Of a stretch of DNA of 64,000 bases, positions 4,863-61,061 are shown piece after piece; the first letter of the stretch is position 1; every line of letters begins with the position of its first letter. The notes beneath the pieces are model-generated. The model was not told where the DNA came from. It searched no databases and worked only from the letters and a program-made list of their open reading frames with translations. The translations under genes and the position numbers were made by a program. The DNA is from Candidatus Saccharimonadales bacterium (GTDB lineage: Bacteria > Patescibacteriota > Saccharimonadia > Saccharimonadales > JANWIN01), in the NCBI GenBank assembly GCA_025449905.1, contig JANWIN010000008.1, positions 4,642 to 68,641 on the forward strand. The letters are read 5' to 3'.

Positions 4863-5197
4863 TGGTTGAGACAAAAAAAACCGAAGTAGCACCAAAGCAG
4901 CGGATAAGAATCCGTCTTAAGGCTTATGACCATAAGGTTATAGATCAATCAGCAAAACAGATTGTCGACACCGCGCTAAGAAATGGTGCCACAATTGCCG
5001 GCCCAATTCCTTTGCCAACAAGGCGCAGTACTTTTACGGTTGTTAAAAGCCCGCATGTTTATAAAAAGGGCCGCGAACAATTTGAAATGAGAGTCCACAA
5101 ACGTTTAATAGACGTATTAGACCCTTCGCCAAAAACCGTTGACGCACTTATGAACCTATCCCTGCCAGCCGGCTGTGACGCCGAAATCAAAATGTAA
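4862..5197 (+). CDS. rpsJ: 30S ribosomal protein S10 (uS10)
   Basis: [18 protein letters not shown]...[23 protein letters not shown] is a typical S10 sequence. Confidence 0.95.
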
Positions 5198-5238
5198 ATT
5201 GTACAAGATATTGACGATCGTCATTTCCTTGTACAATT
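5197..5238 (+). promoter_or_regulatory. nested-palindrome promoter/operator motif, copy 1
   Basis: ATTGTACAA (5198-5206), TGACGATCGTCA 12-bp perfect palindrome (5212-5223), TTGTACAAT (5229-5237). Contains TTGACG and TACAAT hexamers. Near-identical copy at 25504-25546. Confidence 0.6.
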
Positions 5239-5274
5239 TCCTAGAGATATAAAAGTCTGTTATAGAATAAGATA

Positions 5275-5751
5275 ATGAACAAGATTGTTCCAGCCATTGA
5301 TAAGGTAGATTTAAGGCGGGGGATTGATCATATTGGTGTTTCGGCTGTTTCAGTGGTGCATGATGGCAAAGGCAAAATCTTGCTTCACAAGCGCGGTAAG
5401 GGCGCACGTGACGAGCGTGGTCACTGGGATGTAATTGGTGGTGCCATTGAGTTTGGGGAGACTATTGAAGAAGCCATTACGCGCGAAATTAAAGAAGAAC
5501 TTTGCACTAAGCCATTAGATATGGTGTTTTTAATAGTATTTGATGCGCATCGCGTCAATCAAGACAAAGATAAAACTCACTGGATAGCCATCTTGTACGC
5601 CGTGAAAGTTGAACCAAAAACAGTTAAAATAGGTGAGCCGCATAAAATGGATGCCATTGGTTGGTTTGGTCTGAAAGATTTGCCAAAACCACCGCATTCA
5701 CAACTCCACAAAGCATTAAAAGTTGCTATGCAGACTAAGATTATAATCTAG
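5275..5751 (+). CDS. NUDIX hydrolase
   Basis: NUDIX box GGAIEFGETIEEAITREIKEELC; 158 aa; inserted between rpsJ and rplC. Confidence 0.85.
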   Translation: MNKIVPAIDKVDLRRGIDHIGVSAVSVVHDGKGKILLHKRGKGARDERGHWDVIGGAIEFGETIEEAITREIKEELCTKPLDMVFLIVFDAHRVNQDKDKTHWIAILYAVKVEPKTVKIGEPHKMDAIGWFGLKDLPKPPHSQLHKALKVAMQTKIII

Positions 5752-5768
5752 GTAGTTTTTACAACGCA

Positions 5769-5932
5769 TTGACAGAGGTAGCGGTCTTTTGTTACTCTAT
5801 TACGGTATCTAAATAATTTGAGGCAACTTTGCTTGGTGAATCGGAAGGTCCGGGTCACGCTCGGAAACCAGCGGACACCAAGTATTTTAGTGCCAAAGGA
5901 TGCATTAATGCATAGAAGCATAGGAAGGGTTT
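5769..5932 (+). promoter_or_regulatory. candidate promoter plus structured leader of the rplC-led operon
   Basis: TTGACA (5769-74), 18-nt spacer, TACTCT. A 7-bp closing helix CTTGGTG...CACCAAG and the 14-bp palindrome ATGCATTAATGCAT lie just before the rplC RBS. Confidence 0.3.
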
Positions 5933-6547
5933 GTGAAAGCACTAATTGCTCAAAAGTTGGGCATGACCAGTCTTATAAACGAAAACGGAACAGCGCAAGC
6001 TGTAACTCTTCTAGCTATTGGCGACAATACAGTCGTCCAAGTTAAAACAATTGAAAAAGATGGCTACACGGCCATACAGGTTGGTGCAAACAAGGTAAAA
6101 AAGAATAGCAAGCCTTTGAGTGGGCATCTGAAGCCAGCCAAAGTGAATGTCGGTATTATGCGCGAATTTCGCGCAGACGAGATTCCAGAAGACCTCAGTG
6201 TTGGAACCAAGCTAACACCCGAGGTCTTTTCAGTTGGTGATGTCGTGTCAGTAACGGCCAACAATAAAGGCAAAGGTTTTGCCGGCACTATTAAGCGCCA
6301 TAATTTTAACACTGGGCCTAAAACTCATGGTGGCCAAAGTTATCGCCGCCCGGGCTCTATTGGCTCAATGTATCCGCAGAAGATTTTTAAAGGTAAAAAA
6401 ATGGCTGGCCGCATGGGCAATGTCCGTACCACAACCAAAAACCTCAAGATTGCCCTAGTTGACAATGAAAATCAGGTTATTGGCGTAACCGGCGCCGTTC
6501 CCGGACCAAGAAAAGGTACAGTTTTAGTGAAAGGGGCTCAAAAGTGA
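5933..6547 (+). CDS. rplC: 50S ribosomal protein L3 (uL3)
   Basis: VKALIAQKLGMTS..., GKGFAGTIKRHNF; GTG start. Confidence 0.95.
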   Translation: MKALIAQKLGMTSLINENGTAQAVTLLAIGDNTVVQVKTIEKDGYTAIQVGANKVKKNSKPLSGHLKPAKVNVGIMREFRADEIPEDLSVGTKLTPEVFSVGDVVSVTANNKGKGFAGTIKRHNFNTGPKTHGGQSYRRPGSIGSMYPQKIFKGKKMAGRMGNVRTTTKNLKIALVDNENQVIGVTGAVPGPRKGTVLVKGAQK

Positions 6548-7206
6548 GTGTAGCAACTTTCACTAAAACGGGAACCAAGGCAACCGCTGAAGCCAAATTG
6601 CACAAGGCTATTTTTGGCGTAGAGGTTGGTAGCCATGAACTGCTAAAACAAGCTTACGTTGGGTATTTGGCTAATGGCCGCAGTGCAGGTGCTAAAACCA
6701 AGACTCGCGGCCTAGTACGTGGTGGTGGACGAAAACCACACCCCCAAAAGGGTACCGGCCGAGCCCGTTCGGGCTCAAAACGAAATCCCTTGTGGACAGG
6801 TGGAGGTATAATTTTTGGCCCAACTGGCAATCAGAATTATTCTAAAAAGCTTAGCACTCAAGCTAAGCGACAAGCTTTAAGGCAAGCTTTGAGCCTAGCT
6901 GCCAAAGAAGGGCAGCTTAAGATTATTGAAACTTTTGAATGCAAAGAAGGCCAAGTTAAGCCGACATTGAGTTTACTTAAAAAAATTGGTGCTGAGGGCA
7001 ATGTCCTATTAGTTGTTAGTGTGCTTGATGAGCTGGTAGGCCGAGCCACGCGCAATATCTCAAACATAGCTGCTGTTCAGGCTAAATATCTTAACGTTTA
7101 TGACATTTTGAATGCTGAAACGATCATAATTAGCCAAAAATCTTTGGCAGTTATTAATGACTGGCTGGGTGAAGCTAAGACCAAAAAGGTGACAAGCAAT
7201 GAGTAA
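6544..7206 (+). CDS. rplD: 50S ribosomal protein L4 (uL4)
   Basis: RGGGRKPHPQKGTGRARSGS motif; 4-nt overlap with rplC. Confidence 0.95.
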   Translation: MSVATFTKTGTKATAEAKLHKAIFGVEVGSHELLKQAYVGYLANGRSAGAKTKTRGLVRGGGRKPHPQKGTGRARSGSKRNPLWTGGGIIFGPTGNQNYSKKLSTQAKRQALRQALSLAAKEGQLKIIETFECKEGQVKPTLSLLKKIGAEGNVLLVVSVLDELVGRATRNISNIAAVQAKYLNVYDILNAETIIISQKSLAVINDWLGEAKTKKVTSNE

Positions 7207-7666: not shown

Positions 7667-8503
7667 ATGGCTATAAAAGCTTATAAACCCACTACTCCAG
7701 CCAGACGCGGCATGACAACTCAGGACATGTCAACGATAACCGCTAAAAAGCCGGTTAAATCCCTACGCGTTGTTAAAAACAGAATTAACGGCCGAAACAA
7801 CCAGGGCCGCATTACCGTTCGTCATCGCGGTGGCGGAGCGCGTAAGTTCTATCGAATTGTTGATTTTAAACTGGAATCAGGGACCACGGCGGTGGTTGAG
7901 CAGATCGAATATGATCCGAACCGCAGTGCCCGAATTGCTCGCATTAAGGATGACAATAATAGCTATCACTATATTTTGGCTGGTAAGGGAATGAAAGTGG
8001 GCAAGAAAATTTCTAGTGGCGATGAATCAGCCATTGCTAGCGGCAATCGCTTACCTCTAAAGAATATTCCAGCCGGTAGCTCGATTTATGCTATTGAAAT
8101 GCAACCTGGCAAAGGCGCCCAAATTGCCAGAAGTGCCGGCGCAAGTGCTACACTTATGGGTAAAGAGGGTAAGTTTGCGCAGCTTAGGATGCCGAGCGGT
8201 GAAATTCGCTTAGTAAATTTGGACTGTACAGCTAGCTTGGGTGTGGTTGGTAACGAGCAGCACCAAAACATTAAGGTTGGCAAGGCTGGACGAACCCGTA
8301 GAAAAGGTATTCGCCCGACCGTCCGAGGTGTGGTTATGAACGCCGCAGACCACCCGCACGGTGGTGGTGACGGTGGTCGTCACGGTTCCGGTAAAGACCC
8401 ACGCACCCCTTGGGGCCAGAAGACGCTGGGCTACAAAACTCGCCGACGCAAGAATACCAATCAGTTTATTGTTAAAAGCCGACAGGCAGCAAAGAGGAGA
8501 TAG
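7667..8503 (+). CDS. rplB: 50S ribosomal protein L2 (uL2)
   Basis: RHRGGGARKFYR and NAADHPHGGGDG motifs. Confidence 0.97.
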   Translation: MAIKAYKPTTPARRGMTTQDMSTITAKKPVKSLRVVKNRINGRNNQGRITVRHRGGGARKFYRIVDFKLESGTTAVVEQIEYDPNRSARIARIKDDNNSYHYILAGKGMKVGKKISSGDESAIASGNRLPLKNIPAGSSIYAIEMQPGKGAQIARSAGASATLMGKEGKFAQLRMPSGEIRLVNLDCTASLGVVGNEQHQNIKVGKAGRTRRKGIRPTVRGVVMNAADHPHGGGDGGRHGSGKDPRTPWGQKTLGYKTRRRKNTNQFIVKSRQAAKRR

Positions 8504-13052: not shown

Positions 13053-13595
13053 ATGAGTCGAGTTGGCAAACAACCAATCAAAGTTCCCAGCGGCGTAAAT
13101 GCCGCAATTGATGGCTCTAATGTAACTGTTAGCGGCCCTCAAGGTAATTTGTCACTCAAAACCTTGCCAGGTATGGTTATCAAGCAAGACGGTGATGAGA
13201 TAATTGTAAGCCGTAGCAATGAAGAAACAATGTCCAGAGCCCGTCATGGCCTAACCCGAACGCTTATAGACAATATGGTAGTTGGCGTCAGCCAGGGTTT
13301 TAATAAAAAGTTAGAAGTTAACGGTGTTGGCTTTCGTGTAAATCTAGCTGGACAGGATCTTAAGCTTAGCTTGGGCTATTCCCATGAAATAACTTATAAG
13401 ATACCAGAGACTGTAAAATTAGCTGTTGACCAGAACATCATCACGATTAGCGGCATTGATAAACAGCAGGTTGGCCAAGTGGCAGCTGAAATTCGAGCAC
13501 TTAAAAAACCCGAGCCATATAAGGGCAAAGGTATTAAATATGTTAATGAGCGAATTATTAGAAAAGCCGGCAAAAGCGCTAAGGATAAAGCATAA
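13053..13595 (+). CDS. rplF: 50S ribosomal protein L6 (uL6)
   Basis: MSRVGKQPIKVPSGV... is canonical. Confidence 0.96.
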   Translation: MSRVGKQPIKVPSGVNAAIDGSNVTVSGPQGNLSLKTLPGMVIKQDGDEIIVSRSNEETMSRARHGLTRTLIDNMVVGVSQGFNKKLEVNGVGFRVNLAGQDLKLSLGYSHEITYKIPETVKLAVDQNIITISGIDKQQVGQVAAEIRALKKPEPYKGKGIKYVNERIIRKAGKSAKDKA

Positions 13596-13708
13596 TGAGA
13601 ATTGAAGCTATAAGGGAAAAGAGAGCCCGAGAAAATGTATTTCATTGTTCCCGGCGTGATGAGAAAAACCGTAGGTTTGTCTCATGGAACTCTAAGGATA
13701 AGGCGTAA
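13595..13708 (+). CDS. candidate 37-aa basic micro-protein filling the rplF-rplR gap
   Basis: Hand-translated as MRIEAIREKRARENVFHCSRRDEKNRRFVSWNSKDKA. TAATG overlaps at both ends (rplF stop/ATG 13593-97; stop/rplR ATG 13706-10). Below the ORF-track size cutoff. Confidence 0.3.
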   Translation: MRIEAIREKRARENVFHCSRRDEKNRRFVSWNSKDKA

Positions 13709-14064
13709 TGAATAGACTAGCCGCCACGACCGGTCGAAGACAGGCCCGTAGCCGCCGTACTAGAGCTGTAGTTCGAGGTACTTCCGAACGGCCCCGACTC
13801 AATGTATTTATTAGCCAGCGGCATATCACTGCCCAGATAATTGATGACAGCAAGCATCAAACATTGGCTTATGTCACAACCGTTAGCCAAAAGTCCTTAC
13901 CGACTAACCTTACTGAGCGAGCCAACTGGGCTGGAGATGAAATAGCCAAGCTGGCAAAAACCGCTAAGGTAAAAAAAGTGGTTTTAGATCGCAGCAACCG
14001 CCTGTATCATGGGCGAGTAAAGGCTTTGGCAGAGGCAGCCCGCAAGTCAGGATTGGAGTTTTAA
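13708..14064 (+). CDS. rplR: 50S ribosomal protein L18 (uL18)
   Basis: Arg-rich N-terminus, RPRLNVFISQRHITAQIIDD. Confidence 0.95.
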   Translation: MNRLAATTGRRQARSRRTRAVVRGTSERPRLNVFISQRHITAQIIDDSKHQTLAYVTTVSQKSLPTNLTERANWAGDEIAKLAKTAKVKKVVLDRSNRLYHGRVKALAEAARKSGLEF

Positions 14065-24636: not shown

Positions 24637-25503
24637 ATGGATTTAGTCTTAAACCCAAAGGTTAAGGGTGAAATAGAGCAGTTTTTGAATAAACCATCGC
24701 ATGCTTTGCTGCTAGTTGGGCCCGTAGGTAGCGGGAAAAACACATTAGCAACTTATATTTCCGCCAATATCTTAGATTTAAGCGAAGAAAAGCTAAAACA
24801 TTACCCCCATTTTCTTACGCTGGAACCGGACGGACCCAGCATTTCGATAGACGACATTAGAAAGCTGCACAGCTTTGTAAGCTTGAAAACACCGGGTACA
24901 AAATCGATACGCAGAATAGTGGTAGTTCAAAACGCTCAAACTCTGACAATTGAAGCCCAAAACTCTTTTCTAAAACTCCTAGAGGAACCACCGGCTGATA
25001 CGCTATTTATTATGACCGCTTCAGATACTAATTCACTGCTACCAACGGTCTTATCAAGAGTTAGAAGATTAAACGTTTTGCCACCAGACAGAGTTAAATT
25101 TAACGATTATCTTCAAAATAAAGGTTACAAAGTCAGTGACATAGAACGAGCTTTAAATGTTTCCGGCGGACTGCCTGGGCTAGCGACAGCAATTTTAGAG
25201 GCCGATGAAGAGCACCTGCTGGTTAGTCAGATTGAACGAGCCAAGCAACTAATATCTTCAACTATGTTTGAGAGACTAAACGAAGTTAATAACCTGGCAA
25301 AGAACAAGGATGAACTTCCAACCTTATTAATGGCCATCCGGCGCGTCAGTCGAGCAATGTTAACTCAAGCTGCCGAAAAACACAGCCAAGCCGAAGTCAG
25401 AAAGTGGCACTCAATTTTATCGAATGTTGTGCGATCTGAAGACTTGCTGGGTAAAAACCCCCAGCCAAAGTTGCTACTGACTAACCTCCTCATCCAGTTT
25501 TAA
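24637..25503 (+). CDS. holB: DNA polymerase III delta' subunit
   Basis: LLLVGPVGSGKNTLA, FLKLLEEPP, LLPTVLSRVRRL. ATG 24637 lies just after the rluD stop; the ORF-track start 24574 is rejected. Confidence 0.7.
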   Translation: MDLVLNPKVKGEIEQFLNKPSHALLLVGPVGSGKNTLATYISANILDLSEEKLKHYPHFLTLEPDGPSISIDDIRKLHSFVSLKTPGTKSIRRIVVVQNAQTLTIEAQNSFLKLLEEPPADTLFIMTASDTNSLLPTVLSRVRRLNVLPPDRVKFNDYLQNKGYKVSDIERALNVSGGLPGLATAILEADEEHLLVSQIERAKQLISSTMFERLNEVNNLAKNKDELPTLLMAIRRVSRAMLTQAAEKHSQAEVRKWHSILSNVVRSEDLLGKNPQPKLLLTNLLIQF

Positions 25504-25546
25504 AATTGTACTAGATATTGACGATCGTCACGAAGTTGTACAATTT
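25504..25546 (+). promoter_or_regulatory. nested-palindrome promoter/operator motif, copy 2
   Basis: AATTGTACTAGATATTGACGATCGTCAcgaagTTGTACAATTTC. Matches copy 1 except for one arm base and the 5-nt spacer segment; 38 nt upstream of the TPR gene. Confidence 0.6.
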
Positions 25547-25582
25547 CAGGGGTGATTTGTGGGTTTGCTATAATGAAGTTGC

Positions 25583-28545: not shown

Positions 28546-28622
28546 AGGGGTGTAGCTCAGTTGGCTAGAGCGACGGTCTCCAAAACCGTAGGTCGGGGGT
28601 TCAAGTCCCTCCACCCCTGCCA
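28546..28622 (+). tRNA. tRNA-Trp (anticodon CCA)
   Basis: Acceptor aggggtg/cacccct; anticodon loop CTCCAAA; CCA encoded. Confidence 0.88.
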
Positions 28623-28683: not shown

Positions 28684-28701
28684 GTCCCTCCACCCCTGCC
28701 A
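28684..28701 (+). repeat. 18-bp direct duplicate of the tRNA-Trp 3' end
   Basis: gtccctccacccctgcca at 28605-28622 and again at 28684-28701. Confidence 0.85.
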
Positions 28702-30098: not shown

Positions 30099-30121
30099 AT
30101 TAAGCAAGTTTATGTAATAAT

Positions 30122-30212
30122 GCGGCTTTGCCTTATAAGACAAAACTACGTTTTTTCTCACCAAAGCCGGAAAAATGAAATACATTTTAGTCGGGCTGCT
30201 CTTTTTCCTTAA
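30122..30212 (-). repeat. ~91-bp hairpin-bearing repeat element, copy A
   Basis: About 80 of 91 positions match the reverse complement of 45064-45154 by eye. Internal helix GGCTTTG...CAAAGCC. Flanked by the 12-bp direct repeat TTATGTAATAAT (30110-21, 30224-35). Confidence 0.75.
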
Positions 30213-30242
30213 GCTGCTTCAAATTATGTAATAATAAGGCAT

Positions 30243-39909: not shown

Positions 39910-40137
39910 ATGGAAGGTCAAATAAGCGAACCTGTTTCTAGCCAAGAACCAATAGTAGACCCTGAAGTCTATAGGCTACTTGAAATTGGTGAAAAACTTA
40001 AAGCCTTTGGCCTATTAAGTCGAGAGATAAGACTTGAGCTTATACACGGTGCGCCTTGTGGCGAACAATGGAGTGTCAGGCTAATGCGCTGGTACCCGAA
40101 ACCAACGGTTGACGAAACATCTGAATCTAATCTATAA
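39910..40137 (+). CDS. hypothetical protein (75 aa)
   Basis: ATG 39910 preceded by AGGAGG at 4 nt. The longer ORF-track frame (39661) runs through the leuA-family 3' end and the leader region. Confidence 0.45.
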   Translation: MEGQISEPVSSQEPIVDPEVYRLLEIGEKLKAFGLLSREIRLELIHGAPCGEQWSVRLMRWYPKPTVDETSESNL

Positions 40138-40139
40138 TA

Positions 40140-40234
40140 TACTGGTTACCAGAGACAGTGGCGGCGAAAGCTTAATTATGCCACCGAGGTAGAAACAACT
40201 TTTCTATGTCTTTGGTATGCGCCAAAGATTTTTT
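40140..40234 (+). promoter_or_regulatory. rplJ (L10) leader-like structured 5' region with terminator-type hairpin
   Basis: GTGGC...GCCAC helix (40159-40185). TCTTTGG/tatgcg/CCAAAGA plus T6 (40209-40234), 16 nt before the rplJ ATG. L10-leader autoregulation is known in other bacteria. Confidence 0.45.
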
Positions 40235-40250
40235 AATTTTAAGAGGTAAG

Positions 40251-45063: not shown

Positions 45064-45154
45064 TTAAGGAAAAAGAGCAGCCCAAGACAAATGTATTCCA
45101 TTTTGCAGGCTTTGGTGAGAAAAACGTAGTTTTGTCTTATAAGGCGAAGCCGGC
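45064..45154 (+). repeat. ~91-bp hairpin-bearing repeat element, copy B
   Basis: Reverse-complement match to 30122-30212; internal helix GGCTTTG...CGAAGCC (one G-U). Confidence 0.75.
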
Positions 45155-52143: not shown

Positions 52144-53094
52144 ATGGAGCAGGTAAATTTTCTCAATAATTCGGGAATGCTAAAGGTTTCCGGTGGGCAC
52201 CATCTTTACTGGGAAGATTGGGGTAACAAACAATCCAAAGTACCTATCTTTTATTTACACGGTGGTCCAGGTGAGGGTTTTAAGGCTAAAGATGGGCTAA
52301 TGTTTGATCCGAAGAATCAACGCATTATATTTTATGATCAGCGCGGATCCGGCAAGAGTAGGCCCTACGCCAGTCTAAAAAATAACACAACCCAGGATTT
52401 AGTAGACGATATAGATCGTATACGGAAACATTTAAACATCGGGGTTATACACTTAGCTGGCGGTTCTTGGGGATCAACTTTAGCTTTAAATTATGCAACC
52501 GCTAATCCCGAGGTTGTTCAGAAAATGTTGCTTTGGGGTATTTTTCTTGGACGAGAGGAAGATATTAACTATCTCTACCAAGGTGAGGGTCACAAGTTCA
52601 ACTTTCCTGACGTTTGGCAGAGATACGTTGACATGGTTCCGCAAATGGAACGCTCAAATATTGCGGCTTATTACACAAAACAACTGGAGCATAGAGATCC
52701 GGCAGTCCGACAGCGTTATGTCAACGAGTGGTTGCTTTATGAAAATTCGCTACTCGAGATTGACAGCAAAATCGAAAGAAAAATCCTAGAATCAGACCTA
52801 AAGGATGACCCCTACGCGCTAGCCTTCGCCAAACTTGAAGCTCACTATGGTGCAAATAAGTATTTCATGTCTGAAAACCATCTTCTAAAGAATGCTAAAG
52901 TTTTACGCCATATTCCCATCATCTTAGTTCACGGGCGATTCGATTTTGTCTGCCCCCTAAGCGGTGCCTTTGAATTACAAAAGGAAATTGGCGATAATTC
53001 ATATCTTCATATAGTTCCAGCAGGGCATGCCAGAAGTGATGCAGTCTATCGTGAGGTTGTAAAAGCCTACGCTCGCAGTTTTTTATTGAGCTGA
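52144..53094 (+). CDS. pip: proline iminopeptidase (alpha/beta hydrolase)
   Basis: HGGPG, GGSWGSTLAL nucleophile elbow, C-terminal GHA. Confidence 0.85.
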   Translation: MEQVNFLNNSGMLKVSGGHHLYWEDWGNKQSKVPIFYLHGGPGEGFKAKDGLMFDPKNQRIIFYDQRGSGKSRPYASLKNNTTQDLVDDIDRIRKHLNIGVIHLAGGSWGSTLALNYATANPEVVQKMLLWGIFLGREEDINYLYQGEGHKFNFPDVWQRYVDMVPQMERSNIAAYYTKQLEHRDPAVRQRYVNEWLLYENSLLEIDSKIERKILESDLKDDPYALAFAKLEAHYGANKYFMSENHLLKNAKVLRHIPIILVHGRFDFVCPLSGAFELQKEIGDNSYLHIVPAGHARSDAVYREVVKAYARSFLLS

Positions 53095-54065
53095 GTTCGT
53101 AGTTTAACCGGTAGTAACTTAGTTAGCTCTTTTTGATTACTCATCAGAACGGTCGAGGGCTGACTGGATTTGACGCTTAGTCGAATAAAATCGTTATAAG
53201 TAACTCGCATATGTTGTTCGTGAGCGTGTCGATTGAACTTCTTGCCACCTGCACGGCTTATATGCCAAACCGGCAAGTCAATTTGGACTCTGCAGTTATC
53301 CAGCTTTAGCTGCTGCAAGACGCTGTAAAGGTAAGTTCTGGTGCTAGCCGCGCGCAGTTGTTTAGCCTCAACTTCGGCAAGGCTAGATTTTTCGACCACA
53401 TTTAGATTATTAAAGTCGTGACCTAGATTTTTTTGATAATATTTTTTTAATATCTTAGGTCTAAAAGCTAACTGCCTGATAAGCGGTGCGGTTACACGGG
53501 TGGAAAATATCTCAGTTAACATTGCAAGTAGGGCTTTATGCGATTTAGACATAACCAAGTCTTCATGGTGGGTAAAGCCCTCAACGCTAACAACCAAATC
53601 AACCCTTGATGCTATTTCTGGATGATTTTGTAGCATTCGAGTCAGCGCAACGAAGCCGAAGCCCCAGCCGACAACCGTTAATCGCCGTCTTTTATAGCGC
53701 AGCTTAACAATAGCTGCCAAATAATCGGCAAAGTTATTTATAGTAGGTTTTTGACCAATTTTATAAAAACTATCCATGCCGCCAACACCTGGTAGGTCTG
53801 GCACCGTAACGGATCCGTATTTATTGAGTAAAATTGCAACTTGGTGAATTTGCTCCAGGCTGCCAGGCATGTCGTAAACAAGCAAAATATCTCGACTCTT
53901 AGTGCCCTTAGCTGGCAATCGTAGCATTCGGCCGCTCATGCCGTTGACGTTCAAGGGTACTATAAATTTAACCGGTATATTAGAGATATACTCGTTCATT
54001 TCTTTAAACTCTAAAGATAGATTACGATATCTTTGCAAAATCAGCAACATTCGCGTAAATAGCAT
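53067..54065 (-). CDS. alpha/beta-hydrolase-fold-like protein lacking the nucleophile serine
   Basis: LLVYDMPGS...VPDLPGVGGMD resembles an a/b-hydrolase N-terminus. The elbow reads GWGFG instead of GxSxG. Confidence 0.45.
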   Translation of the reverse strand: MLFTRMLLILQRYRNLSLEFKEMNEYISNIPVKFIVPLNVNGMSGRMLRLPAKGTKSRDILLVYDMPGSLEQIHQVAILLNKYGSVTVPDLPGVGGMDSFYKIGQKPTINNFADYLAAIVKLRYKRRRLTVVGWGFGFVALTRMLQNHPEIASRVDLVVSVEGFTHHEDLVMSKSHKALLAMLTEIFSTRVTAPLIRQLAFRPKILKKYYQKNLGHDFNNLNVVEKSSLAEVEAKQLRAASTRTYLYSVLQQLKLDNCRVQIDLPVWHISRAGGKKFNRHAHEQHMRVTYNDFIRLSVKSSQPSTVLMSNQKELTKLLPVKLRTQLNKKLRA

Positions 54066-59945: not shown

Positions 59946-61061
59946 ATGAAAGCAAAGCTTTTTAATCAAGATTTACTAACCAAGAGTTTATTGGTTGTTC
60001 TAGCCTTACTATTAGTATGGTTTGTAATGTTTTTATTCGACATGCCCAAGAAAACCAACGGTGTTGTTCTGGGCGAATCAGCCAGCGTAGTCAGTGGCAC
60101 ACAAGGTCCACAGGGGATCCCCGGTTTAGACGGTCTTCAAGGAGTACAGGGAATACAAGGTATTCAGGGCGTCGCTGGCGTTAACGGCCAAGACGGTAAA
60201 GATGGAAACGATGGCGCAACTGGCGCTCAAGGTGTTCAGGGAGTTCAAGGTGAAACTGGTGCTCAGGGCGCACAAGGTCCACAGGGTGACACTGGTCAAA
60301 CTGGTGCTCAGGGACCACAGGGTGTTCAAGGTGTAAAAGGTGACACCGGAGCAACCGGTGCGCAAGGTCCGCAGGGCGACACTGGTGCTACCGGCGCTCA
60401 AGGTCCTCAAGGTGATAAAGGTGATATTGGTTTAACCGGTCCTCAAGGTGTTCAGGGTGAAACCGGTCCACAGGGAATTCAAGGTCCTATCGGTTTAACC
60501 GGTGCACAAGGACCACAGGGAATTCAAGGTCCTCAGGGTGACACCGGTCTTCAAGGTCCAACTGGTCAAACCGGTGCTATTGGTCTTACTGGTCCTCAAG
60601 GTCCAGCCGGAATCCAAGGTCCTATTGGCTTAACTGGCCCAACTGGTGCTACTGGTGCGCAAGGTCCTATCGGCTTAACAGGTCCAACCGGTCCTGCCGG
60701 TGCTACTGGTGCGCAAGGTCCTATTGGTCTAACCGGTCCCCAGGGTCCAGCTGGTCCAGCTGGTGCTGCCGGAGCCAACGCTTCAGCTTCACTAGAAACT
60801 GTTACTGCCACCTCAGGTACCGCAACTGGTTCGCCAGAAACTGCTTCTGCAACAGTTAGCTGTACGGGTTCTAAAAAGATCCTAGGCGGTGGCTACTTAG
60901 TTAACGCTGGTGTCGCTTCAGCCTCTAACAACCCAGGTGAAGTTAGCGTTGTGGAAAACCGTGCCGCTAGCGCTACTAGCTGGATAGTTCGAGCCTTCAC
61001 TGATAACAGCGGTGACGTAGGTAGCTGGACAATTACGGCTTACGCAATTTGTAGCCTGTAA
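59946..61061 (+). CDS. membrane-anchored collagen-like (G-X-Y repeat) protein with 94-aa C-terminal globular domain
   Basis: About 75 uninterrupted G-X-Y triplets (nt 60096-60776). N-terminal anchor [17 protein letters not shown]. The alternative in-frame ATG 59895 lacks an SD. Confidence 0.85.

Follow-up and report, generated by a model that had tools for sequence, protein, structure and literature searches.

Several kinds of short structured repeat have been described from the spaces between bacterial genes. The repeats of the REP/REPIN-RAYT systems of Enterobacteria and Pseudomonas are short, extragenic and present in high copy number, lie within operons and at operon ends in both orientations, carry compensatory changes in their hairpins, and are non-autonomous. 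A dual life has been proposed for them, as selfish DNA and as host elements of messenger RNA (mRNA) or DNA structure. Bacterial miniature inverted-repeat transposable elements (MITEs), such as Correia/NEMIS, ERIC and RUP, are ~100 nt long, occur in many intergenic copies associated with direct repeats, and are co-transcribed with their neighbours. Mycobacterial interspersed repetitive units (MIRUs), reportedly described by Supply et al. in 1997, occupy the intercistronic spacers of operons and carry small open reading frames (ORFs) that overlap the flanking stop and start codons. Here we analyse an element that has features in common with each of the three. It lies in a stretch of 64,000 nt (hereafter the window) from a Candidatus Saccharimonadales bacterium (contig JANWIN010000008.1, assembly GCA_025449905.1, positions 4,642 to 68,641), where the initial annotation had recognized a ~91-bp element in two inverted copies. 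These copies, termed A (30122-30212, plus strand) and B (45064-45154), are identical at 82 of 91 positions when B is reverse-complemented, with one 1-nt indel in a run of T residues. A third, more diverged copy, termed C, was found by a repeat scan on the minus strand, between rplF (end 13595) and rplR (start 13708).

Copies A, B and C belong to a family of small, dispersed structured elements, whose unit has sharp ends, whose fold is under selection and whose copies bear footprints of insertion. The overall reading that we favour, with somewhat more confidence than doubt, adds a possible triple-helical core and a possible mobilization in trans. In Saccharibacteria, which live as ultra-small episymbionts and have compact genomes, one would not expect a repeat family inside ribosomal-protein operons, ribosomal RNA (rRNA) spacers and transfer RNA (tRNA) leaders. 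The family can also serve as a marker for strain typing and assembly.

A dispersed and structured unit

The core pattern GACAAANCTACN{1,2}TTTTTCTCA matches at least 118 stretches of the genome collection, nearly all of them from metagenome-assembled genomes of Candidatus Saccharibacteria. Oral TM7 strains are among the carriers, an example being the TM7 HOT-348 contig L049. Taken with 8-kb flanks, these stretches form the L-numbered loci cited below, which amount to 0.95 Mb in all. A covariance model, R1, was built from an alignment of 82 copies and finds 136 copies in the 118 loci and three in the window, giving 139 in about 1 Mb of Saccharibacteria DNA. Both copies first annotated are real, but a copy number of two is too low for the window and far too low for the family; the checks that the initial annotation had proposed, on copy number and by covariance model, return many copies and strong covariation.

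Some loci carry two or three copies inside 8 kb, and L076 carries three within 400 nt. There, at 5164-5641, a reverse copy, a tRNA gene, a forward copy, a reverse copy and another tRNA gene follow one another, with gaps of 2-5 nt to the tRNA ends. The window, too, is saccharibacterial: its elongation factor EF-G shares 83% protein identity with the EF-G of L006, and several loci encode ribosomal proteins with about 83% identity to its own. R1 finds no copy in 209 kb of metagenomic DNA, which comprises 80 L18 loci of more distant origin (the L18 relatives there are only 46-60% identical), and a search of viral contigs gave one weak partial match and no real copy. Rfam 15 returned nothing at the gathering threshold and no relevant match up to E = 10 for copy A or up to E = 1 for six loci with canonical copies, and no description of such a repeat was found by a literature search that included the core sequence. 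The family is apparently undescribed, is like REPs, MITEs and MIRUs in kind, and is confined to Candidatus Saccharibacteria (TM7) in the data searched. We estimate its copy number at tens per genome.

The copied core is 75-76 nt long and consists of hairpin 1 (ATGAGACAAACC-TAC-GGTTTTTCTCAT), a hypervariable hairpin 2 and a tail, TGCTCTTTTCCC. With an optional module of 13 nt at the 5′ end, the folded element measures 76-90 nt. Hairpin 1 (AUGAGA-C-AAACC / UAC / GGUUU-U-UCUCAU) is a near-invariant helix of 12 bp that includes an invariant C.U mismatch, and CG comes next. Hairpin 2 rises from the base GC-G-CC...GGGC, which has a bulged G and a conserved non-Watson-Crick position. Its upper part is free in sequence and length while pairing is kept, and can take the form of a mini-hairpin or of two hairpins. 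The unit closes with the pyrimidine tail UGCUCUUUUCCC. The optional 13-mer, (A/G)CGGCTTCGCCT(A/T), is present in at least 12 copies, and similarity among them ends abruptly at position -13. Within single genomes, the sister copies L023a/b and L016a/b match perfectly between ATGAGAC and CTCTTTTCC and are unrelated beyond these limits. Because the identity of sister copies extends across the core only, the copied unit must have sharp ends.

Covariation supports the fold. On the model alignment pairing is kept in 94.2% of cells, against 77.9% in shuffles, and none of 500 shuffles reaches the observed value. Both partners have changed in 23 of 24 pairs, and pairing drops to 42-57% when the 3′ partners are slid. 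Two pairs of orthologous copies provide evidence that is independent of the fitted alignment. Between the copies in the orthologous 23S-5S spacers of L057 and L093 there are three double compensatory substitutions in hairpin 2, with hairpin 1 and the tail unchanged. Between the ssb-rpsR orthologues L018 and L042 the element is ~88% conserved, like the coding flank, whereas the other flank is ~50% conserved. Compensatory change and conservation in orthologous copies together argue that the structure is under selection in place.

Mirror symmetry between the tail and hairpin 1

Relative to hairpin 1, the tail is a mirror repeat rather than an inverted one. When the tail is read parallel to the purine-rich 5′ strand and the mismatched C is skipped, the correspondences are A:U, U:G, G:C, A:U, G:C, A:U, A:U, A:U, A:U, C:C and C:C. 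This series is the pyrimidine-motif triplex code with a G.U-A inversion triple and the C.C-G triple. The G.U-A inversion triple belongs to the triplex code. Of the non-canonical triples, C.C-G and U.G-C rank with those that are tolerated best (PMC7583470).

Hairpin 1 and the tail also vary together. The length of the A run in hairpin 1 equals that of the U run in the tail in 119 of 124 parsed copies, which fall into classes of 1, 2, 3 and 4 residues; chance alone would give about 81 such agreements, and 119 was not reached in any of 20000 permutations. The triplex code is obeyed at 11 of 12 positions (p ~0.007 by tail permutation). Antiparallel Watson-Crick pairing of the tail to hairpin 1 was considered and set aside, as it explains at most 7 of the 12 positions. 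Variant classes of the upper 5′ strand of hairpin 1 and of the tail change in step: AAACC occurs with UUUCC, AAAAC (as in window copies A and B) with UUUUC, AAAACC with UUUUCC, AAC with UUCC, ACCC(A) with UCCC and, in L029, AUGAGGGGAG with UACUCCCCUC. The A-U and C-G types are present together in single genomes, that of the window among them. A coordinated three-way change separates the orthologues L018 and L042, where A-U has become C-G in hairpin 1 and U has become C in the tail, or the reverse.

From this symmetry we propose that the tail may run along the major groove of hairpin 1, in parallel with its purine strand, and form ~11 base triples (U.A-U, C+.G-C, G.U-A and C.C-G); we regard the case for and against this as evenly balanced. 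If so, an intramolecular triplex makes up the conserved core, and hairpin 2 serves only as a hinge. It would then be a long natural triple helix within one bacterial molecule, outside the reviewed riboswitch and intron classes and carried on a mobile element. The same symmetry allows a purine-motif triplex on the opposite strand, or H-DNA in duplex DNA. Four points speak against the proposal. Its basis is sequence symmetry alone. A tail U stands opposite a G-C pair in L066b and L076a, and L072 has three A residues against two U residues. A test across classes is non-discriminating under a permissive code. Finally, the copy counts are inflated by subfamily descent, and the copies are not mutually independent.

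Insertion footprints and gene context

As read from their flanking sequences, the copies arose by insertion at gene boundaries, often with target duplications of 11-54 nt. In the closest L18 relatives only 1-2 nt separate the L6 stop codon from the L18 ATG, compared with 112 nt in the window, and for 11 copies of other Saccharibacteria the corresponding ribosomal-operon junction of the window carries no element. Exact flanking repeats of at least 10 nt bracket 10 of 95 copies, compared with 0.6% when flanks are randomly re-paired, an enrichment of ~16-fold. Local alignment yields flanking repeats of 11, 12, 15, 20, 22, 30, 34, 39, 44, 53 and 54 nt. The units inserted between them measure 78-105 nt, and both junctions carry variable filler. 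The duplicated segment usually spans from the insertion point to the gene boundary. At operon junctions it comprises the region from the Shine-Dalgarno sequence to the ATG (about 20 nt); elsewhere it comprises the first 10-15 codons (tpiA and msrA), the last 5-17 codons and the stop codon (AlaRS and L030) or the first 14 nt of a tRNA (L098). The duplications thereby restore what the insertion had interrupted, be it a stop codon, a Shine-Dalgarno sequence, a start codon or the 5′ end of a tRNA.

Repeated use of single sites is also evident. L030 has received two successive insertions; they belong to different subfamilies, and a separate duplicate of one and the same target accompanies each of them. 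The same sites are occupied in several genomes by copies with differing hairpin 2 sequences. No common target motif was seen at the junctions. The idea that the fillers at the 5′ and 3′ sides are related by a constant 'circular permutation' was rejected, as their sum varies from 5 to 30 nt. The long and variable target duplications point to an insertion mechanism unlike that of known bacterial transposases, and together with read-through mini-ORFs that rebuild gene signals they bear on how a compact genome tolerates insertions within its operons.

Recombinase genes were encountered near some copies. In L035 a large serine recombinase gene (Resolvase and Recombinase domains; 5364-6950) ends 37 nt before a copy, the elements of this locus being at 6987-7066 and 7691-7783, and clustering of neighbours gave three serine recombinase ORFs beside copies. 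The flanks of L013, L052 and L083 are near-identical by eye, and two of the contigs bear the labels Verrucomicrobiia and Acidobacteriota. The repeat may be a target or a passenger of an integrative element, and these contigs may be mis-binned.

When all copies are drawn as copy A, ~82 of 129 cases have a gene start opposite the 5′ end of the element. Where a tRNA gene lies on the 5′ side, it points away from the element in 32 cases, against five for the other orientation, with a gap of 3-9 nt to the tRNA +1 position. In L057 and L093 the 13-mer adjoins the 5′ end of 5S rRNA. At 158-914 and 1632-1875, in the 3′ region of its 23S rRNA, L093 also has sub-threshold matches to group I introns and a displaced large-subunit rRNA fragment, which suggests that an intron interrupts the 23S gene upstream of the spacer copy. 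All 12 mapped ribosomal-operon copies (11 plus window copy C) are antisense. On the sense strand most of them contain a mini-ORF whose ATG lies over the upstream stop codon, which runs through the element in one frame and stops at or over the downstream ATG; its peptide reads ...REKSS.S...RDEKNRRFVS.... A forward copy in tpiA (L036) is apparently bridged as well, as judged by eye. Replication strand was rejected as the determinant of orientation: the GC skew of the window is uniform though A is opposite to B and C, and across the 139 copies skew tracks gene orientation, not element orientation.

In tRNA-adjacent copies, for example those of L009, L015, L050, L087, L100 and L109, inspection by eye revealed a recurring TGnTA(t/c)AAT box, then CCCCTGTTC, located 20-40 nt past the tail end of the element and oriented toward the tRNA. 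The box is probably the Saccharibacteria tRNA promoter, in which case the reverse strand of the element would be part of the pre-tRNA leader. None of the five tRNA genes of the window (plus strand, 26269, 26349, 27996 and 28546; minus strand, 54814) has a copy beside it. The 3′ end of the tRNA at 28546-28619, GTCCCTCCACCCCTGCCA, is repeated 79 nt downstream (28605-28622 and 28684-28701) around an insert of 61 nt, an arrangement that recalls either the remnant of an att-type site or a further small insertion that duplicated its target.

With filters off, R1 identifies three real copies in the window, scoring 80.3 bits for C, 69 bits for A and 56 bits for B (Table 1). Copy C, whose match spans 13610-13689 on the minus strand, fits the family model better than A or B. 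Its minimum-free-energy fold (z = -3.0 on the minus strand) is canonical and well folded, and its left and right target duplications are identical at 18 of 20 positions. A and B are sister copies of the A-U/UUUU type that carry the 13-nt module and a private alternative helix, and both have lost the basal pairs of hairpin 2. This private helix, GGCTTTG (30124-30130) with CAAAGCC (30162-30168), had been annotated at first as the conserved 7-bp structure. It exists in A and B only and is not the conserved structure. Its 5′ half belongs to the optional module, and its 3′ half is CGCGCC in canonical copies.

The direct repeats of 12 bp that were reported to bracket copy A are borne out: TTATGTAATAAT occurs exactly twice in the window, at these two places, and does not recur as a common 12-mer. 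With one mismatch allowed there are 3 matches in the window against 0.77 expected, and exact direct repeats of at least 12 nt within 150 nt are found at five places only. Removal of the insert from A leaves an ancestral spacer of 30 nt between the YgjP-like and kinase genes. The flanking genes are as initially given. Pfam identifies a YgjP-like metallopeptidase, a HisKA/HATPase kinase and DnaB, and the ORF described as a membrane protein, which follows B, is 396 aa long and has no Pfam match. B sits between the dnaB stop codon (45051) and the following ATG (45180), and no flanking repeat was detected around it. Exact-protein look-ups of the YgjP-like and L18 proteins of the window found nothing on record. 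A weak fourth R1 match (53055-53140; 14.8 bits, E = 0.04) has a tail-like stretch, GCTCTTTTT, but lacks hairpin 1, and looks like a chance match or a very decayed copy.

Table 1. Features of copies A, B and C (positions in the window)
Feature	Position	Strand	Remarks
A, left flanking direct repeat TTATGTAATAAT	30110..30121	+	Exact 12-mer adjoining the first base of the 13-nt module; resembles a target-site duplication
A, optional 5′ module GCGGCTTTGCCTT	30122..30134	+	Small GC hairpin 'HP0'; 13-mer shared in the family
A, hairpin 1 ATAAGACAAAAC-TAC-GTTTTTTCTCAC	30135..30161	+	A-U 'type 2' variant; covariance-model alignment and family covariation
A, hairpin 2 GCCGGAAAAATG-AAATA-CATTTTAGTCGGGC	30166..30196	+	Every pair of the helix covaries across the family
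A, pyrimidine tail TGCTCTTTTTCCT	30197..30209	+	CUCU then 4 U, equal to the 4 A of hairpin 1
A, junction filler GCTGCTTCAAA	30213..30223	+	Between unit and right repeat; absent from B, similar to the filler of C
A, right 12-nt direct repeat	30224..30235	+	Ends 7 nt before the kinase ATG (30243)
B, whole unit	45064..45153	-	Tail 45068-45079, hairpin 2 45080-45110, hairpin 1 45115-45140, 13-nt module 45141-45153
C, left ~20-nt target duplication CTAAGGATAAAGCATAATGA	13579..13598	+	End of rplF, stop codon and overlapping ATG
C, core	13614..13685	-	Tail 13614-13625, hairpin 2 13626-13656, hairpin 1 13659-13685 (canonical C-G type)
C, fillers	13599-13613 and 13686-13691		
C, right target duplication CTAAGGATAAGGCGTAATGA	13692..13711	+	Includes the rplR start (13708)
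Bridging mini-ORF over C, MRIEAIREK...RDEKNRRFVSWNSKDKA	13595..13708	+	37 aa; ATG overlaps the rplF stop, stop overlaps the rplR ATG

Three further features of the window were noted. A 45-nt, internally palindromic repeat, AAATTGTACAAGATATTGACGATCGTCA...TTGTACAATTT, is present at 5196-5240 and 25503-25547 with 87% identity, and may be operator-like or belong to another repeat family. Dense direct repeats with periods of 9, 36 and 45 nt at 60174-60746 are probably a repetitive coding region. The L10 leader (Rfam RF00557, 66 bits) is found at 40131-40244, upstream of rplJ as expected.

Origin of the family and comparison with known systems

The reading of A, B and C as an interspersed structured family can be extended to a mechanism, whose steps we propose with lower confidence. 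The element would be non-autonomous, and a trans-acting activity would recognize its folded single-stranded form, either RNA or single-stranded DNA (ssDNA). Integration would take place at staggered breaks, with fill-in giving rise to the variable duplications. The copies now visible would be survivors, in which the duplication and, inside operons, a read-through mini-ORF keep the neighbours expressed. One orientation may be counter-selected in highly expressed operons, and retained copies would then come under structural selection in place.

Several observations weigh against this account. Mobility is inferred from footprints only, and flanking repeats are recognizable in only about 15% of copies. 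No transposase or reverse transcriptase linked to the copies was found among 233 neighbouring ORFs or in the 0.95 Mb of loci. The strand that folds is left undecided by the counts of G.U and A.C, and, both in ribosomal operons and in front of tRNA and 5S genes, the pyrimidine tail stands on the strand antisense to the known transcript. The compensatory changes in orthologous copies point to a function at the level of the host or locus and not to pure selfishness.

This last observation leads to a serious rival, which we judge possible though distinctly less probable. The element may be a cis-acting RNA module of the host that was spread by duplication and then domesticated for a role in processing, stability or insulation. 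Its reverse strand would act in the 5′ leaders and intercistronic spacers of highly expressed translation genes, in the manner of the RNase III sites of T7 or of REP hairpins. We take this role seriously because orthologous copies evolve by compensatory change. It is also favoured by orientation, as the reverse strand is the sense strand in each of the 12 ribosomal-operon copies and in both 23S-5S spacer copies, by the bias in direction and the close spacing at tRNA genes, and by the recurrence of S7, S17, SSB/S18, AlaRS, ThrRS and YchF among the neighbours. Yet orientation is mixed overall, with ~36% of copies turned the other way and 16 copies flanked by convergent genes, and the tRNA genes of the window are without copies. 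Moreover, the reverse strand in operons is translated through, which would melt the fold, and a plain double-stranded RNA processing site leaves the covariation of the tail with hairpin 1 unexplained. A domesticated RNA role is compatible with a mobile origin, and the two do not exclude each other.

A more speculative possibility, to which we give little weight, is that of a bacterial retroposon-like repeat, a 'SINE of the CPR' (short interspersed nuclear element of the candidate phyla radiation), in which a fragment of processed precursor RNA is copied into DNA. The fragment, short and from a highly expressed precursor, would be set free by a processing step where the downstream 5S rRNA or tRNA has its 5′ end. 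It, or its complementary DNA, would fold as a triple helix of hairpin, hinge and tail that protects or marks its ends, and the DNA copy would be captured at staggered breaks, leaving the duplications of 11-54 nt. In agreement with such an origin, the long form ends at the nucleotide that abuts mature 5S rRNA, and the copied unit is exactly the folded domain. Against it, a motif search of the loci revealed no reverse transcriptase, which also removes the candidate of an enzyme encoded in cis.

The initial annotation had suggested a MITE-like element with a target-site duplication. The duplication is supported by the enrichment of flanking repeats across the family and by the empty sites. A classical MITE, meaning a deletion derivative of an insertion sequence (IS) that is moved by a DDE transposase through terminal inverted repeats, is nevertheless very improbable. 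Its small size, multiple copies, intergenic location and flanking direct repeats are as such an element would have them, but the termini, as set by the alignments of sister copies, are ATGAGAC... and ...CTCTTTTCCC and form no inverted repeat, and the duplications, at 11-54 nt, have no fixed length. A related IS or transposase adjoins none of the 139 copies, and no IS with matching ends was found among the 233 neighbouring ORFs or in the 0.95 Mb of loci.

It is equally hard to credit a promoter or intrinsic terminator cassette. A GC-rich hairpin 2 that precedes a tract rich in U and C, and the positions of copies at gene ends and starts, could suggest one, and the repeats around copy A had been offered as a possible duplicated promoter fragment. 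Consensus scans of the three window copies, however, detected neither a sigma-70 promoter nor an intrinsic terminator, and the promoter-fragment proposal gains no support. By eye, tRNA-adjacent copies have their own -10 box farther upstream, the forward copy of L098 lies between a tRNA and an upstream TATAAT-like box, and canonical terminators are found elsewhere in these genomes. Folds like those of hepatitis delta virus or hammerhead ribozymes or of group II domain V were unsupported by eye and gave no Rfam match.

Least probable of all is a small protein gene, either a forward ORF of 25-30 aa or the reverse mini-ORF: small ORFs do occur in all three window copies, and the reverse frame is kept in most ribosomal-operon copies (phase 0 in 15 of 28 co-directional antisense copies against 5 of 18), but hairpin 2 lengths modulo 3 (41/40/23) show that frame is not maintained, the differences between A and B are non-synonymous and break the forward frame, copies adjoining tRNA and 5S genes cannot code, and the middle of the peptide is unconserved while base pairing is conserved. 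The initial annotation was right on both counts, the ORF broken between A and B and the preference for a nucleic-acid element over a peptide. The mini-ORF appears better explained as a requirement of translational coupling, as in MIRUs.

Comparison with known systems sets the family apart from each of them. Bacterial MITEs have terminal inverted repeats, a fixed duplication length and a parent IS, none of which was found for the family. The IS200/IS605-derived PATE elements insert 3′ of a fixed tetra- or pentanucleotide without duplication, whereas the family duplicates its target and has no common motif. A REP is an imperfect palindrome of 20-40 nt that often occurs in inverted doublets; the unit of the family is an asymmetric arrangement of two hairpins and a tail in 76 nt. 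The GTAG of the REP hairpin foot is absent from this position, and in the family GTAG is present solely in the loop of hairpin 1 on the reverse strand. The 8-kb flanks contain no recurrent neighbour of the RAYT (Y1 HUH) kind. The family further differs in its long, variable flanking duplications and in a tail that mirrors hairpin 1. To our knowledge, REPs leave no long variable flanking duplications.

Eukaryotic SINEs and processed retrocopies, which are made by target-primed reverse transcription, resemble the family in their sharp unit, variable target duplications, variable filler and non-coding nature. Descent from an abundant processed RNA would be another likeness, given that the long form of the family ends where 5S rRNA begins. 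Unlike SINEs, the family has no A-tail or internal promoter, and no reverse transcriptase was found in its loci. We know of no such SINE-like retroposon in bacteria. With MIRUs the family has in common the intercistronic site and the small ORF overlapping start and stop codons, as seen for copy C and most ribosomal-operon copies. MIRUs are tandem direct repeats and have no conserved hairpin or triplex architecture. Copies of the family, by contrast, are mostly single (L030 has two, of different subfamilies) and are found beside tRNA and 5S genes as well.

The proposed core itself is best compared with RNA triple helices (ENE/MALAT1, the SAM-II and preQ1-II pseudoknots and telomerase RNA) and with H-DNA. 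As in these, a pyrimidine third strand would run parallel to a purine strand, U.A-U triples would dominate over a few C+.G-C triples, and a 'reset' would occur at an irregular pair; the ~11 predicted triples are comparable to those of MALAT1. Unlike them, the family is a dispersed repeat that is associated with no gene class typical of riboswitches, and its triplex, being predicted from sequence, could equally be one of ssDNA or H-DNA. Its architecture would also be distinct, as neither a U-rich loop that clamps an A tract nor an H-type pseudoknot is involved, and the third strand would instead be supplied by a 3′ tail that is brought back to hairpin 1 by a hinge hairpin.

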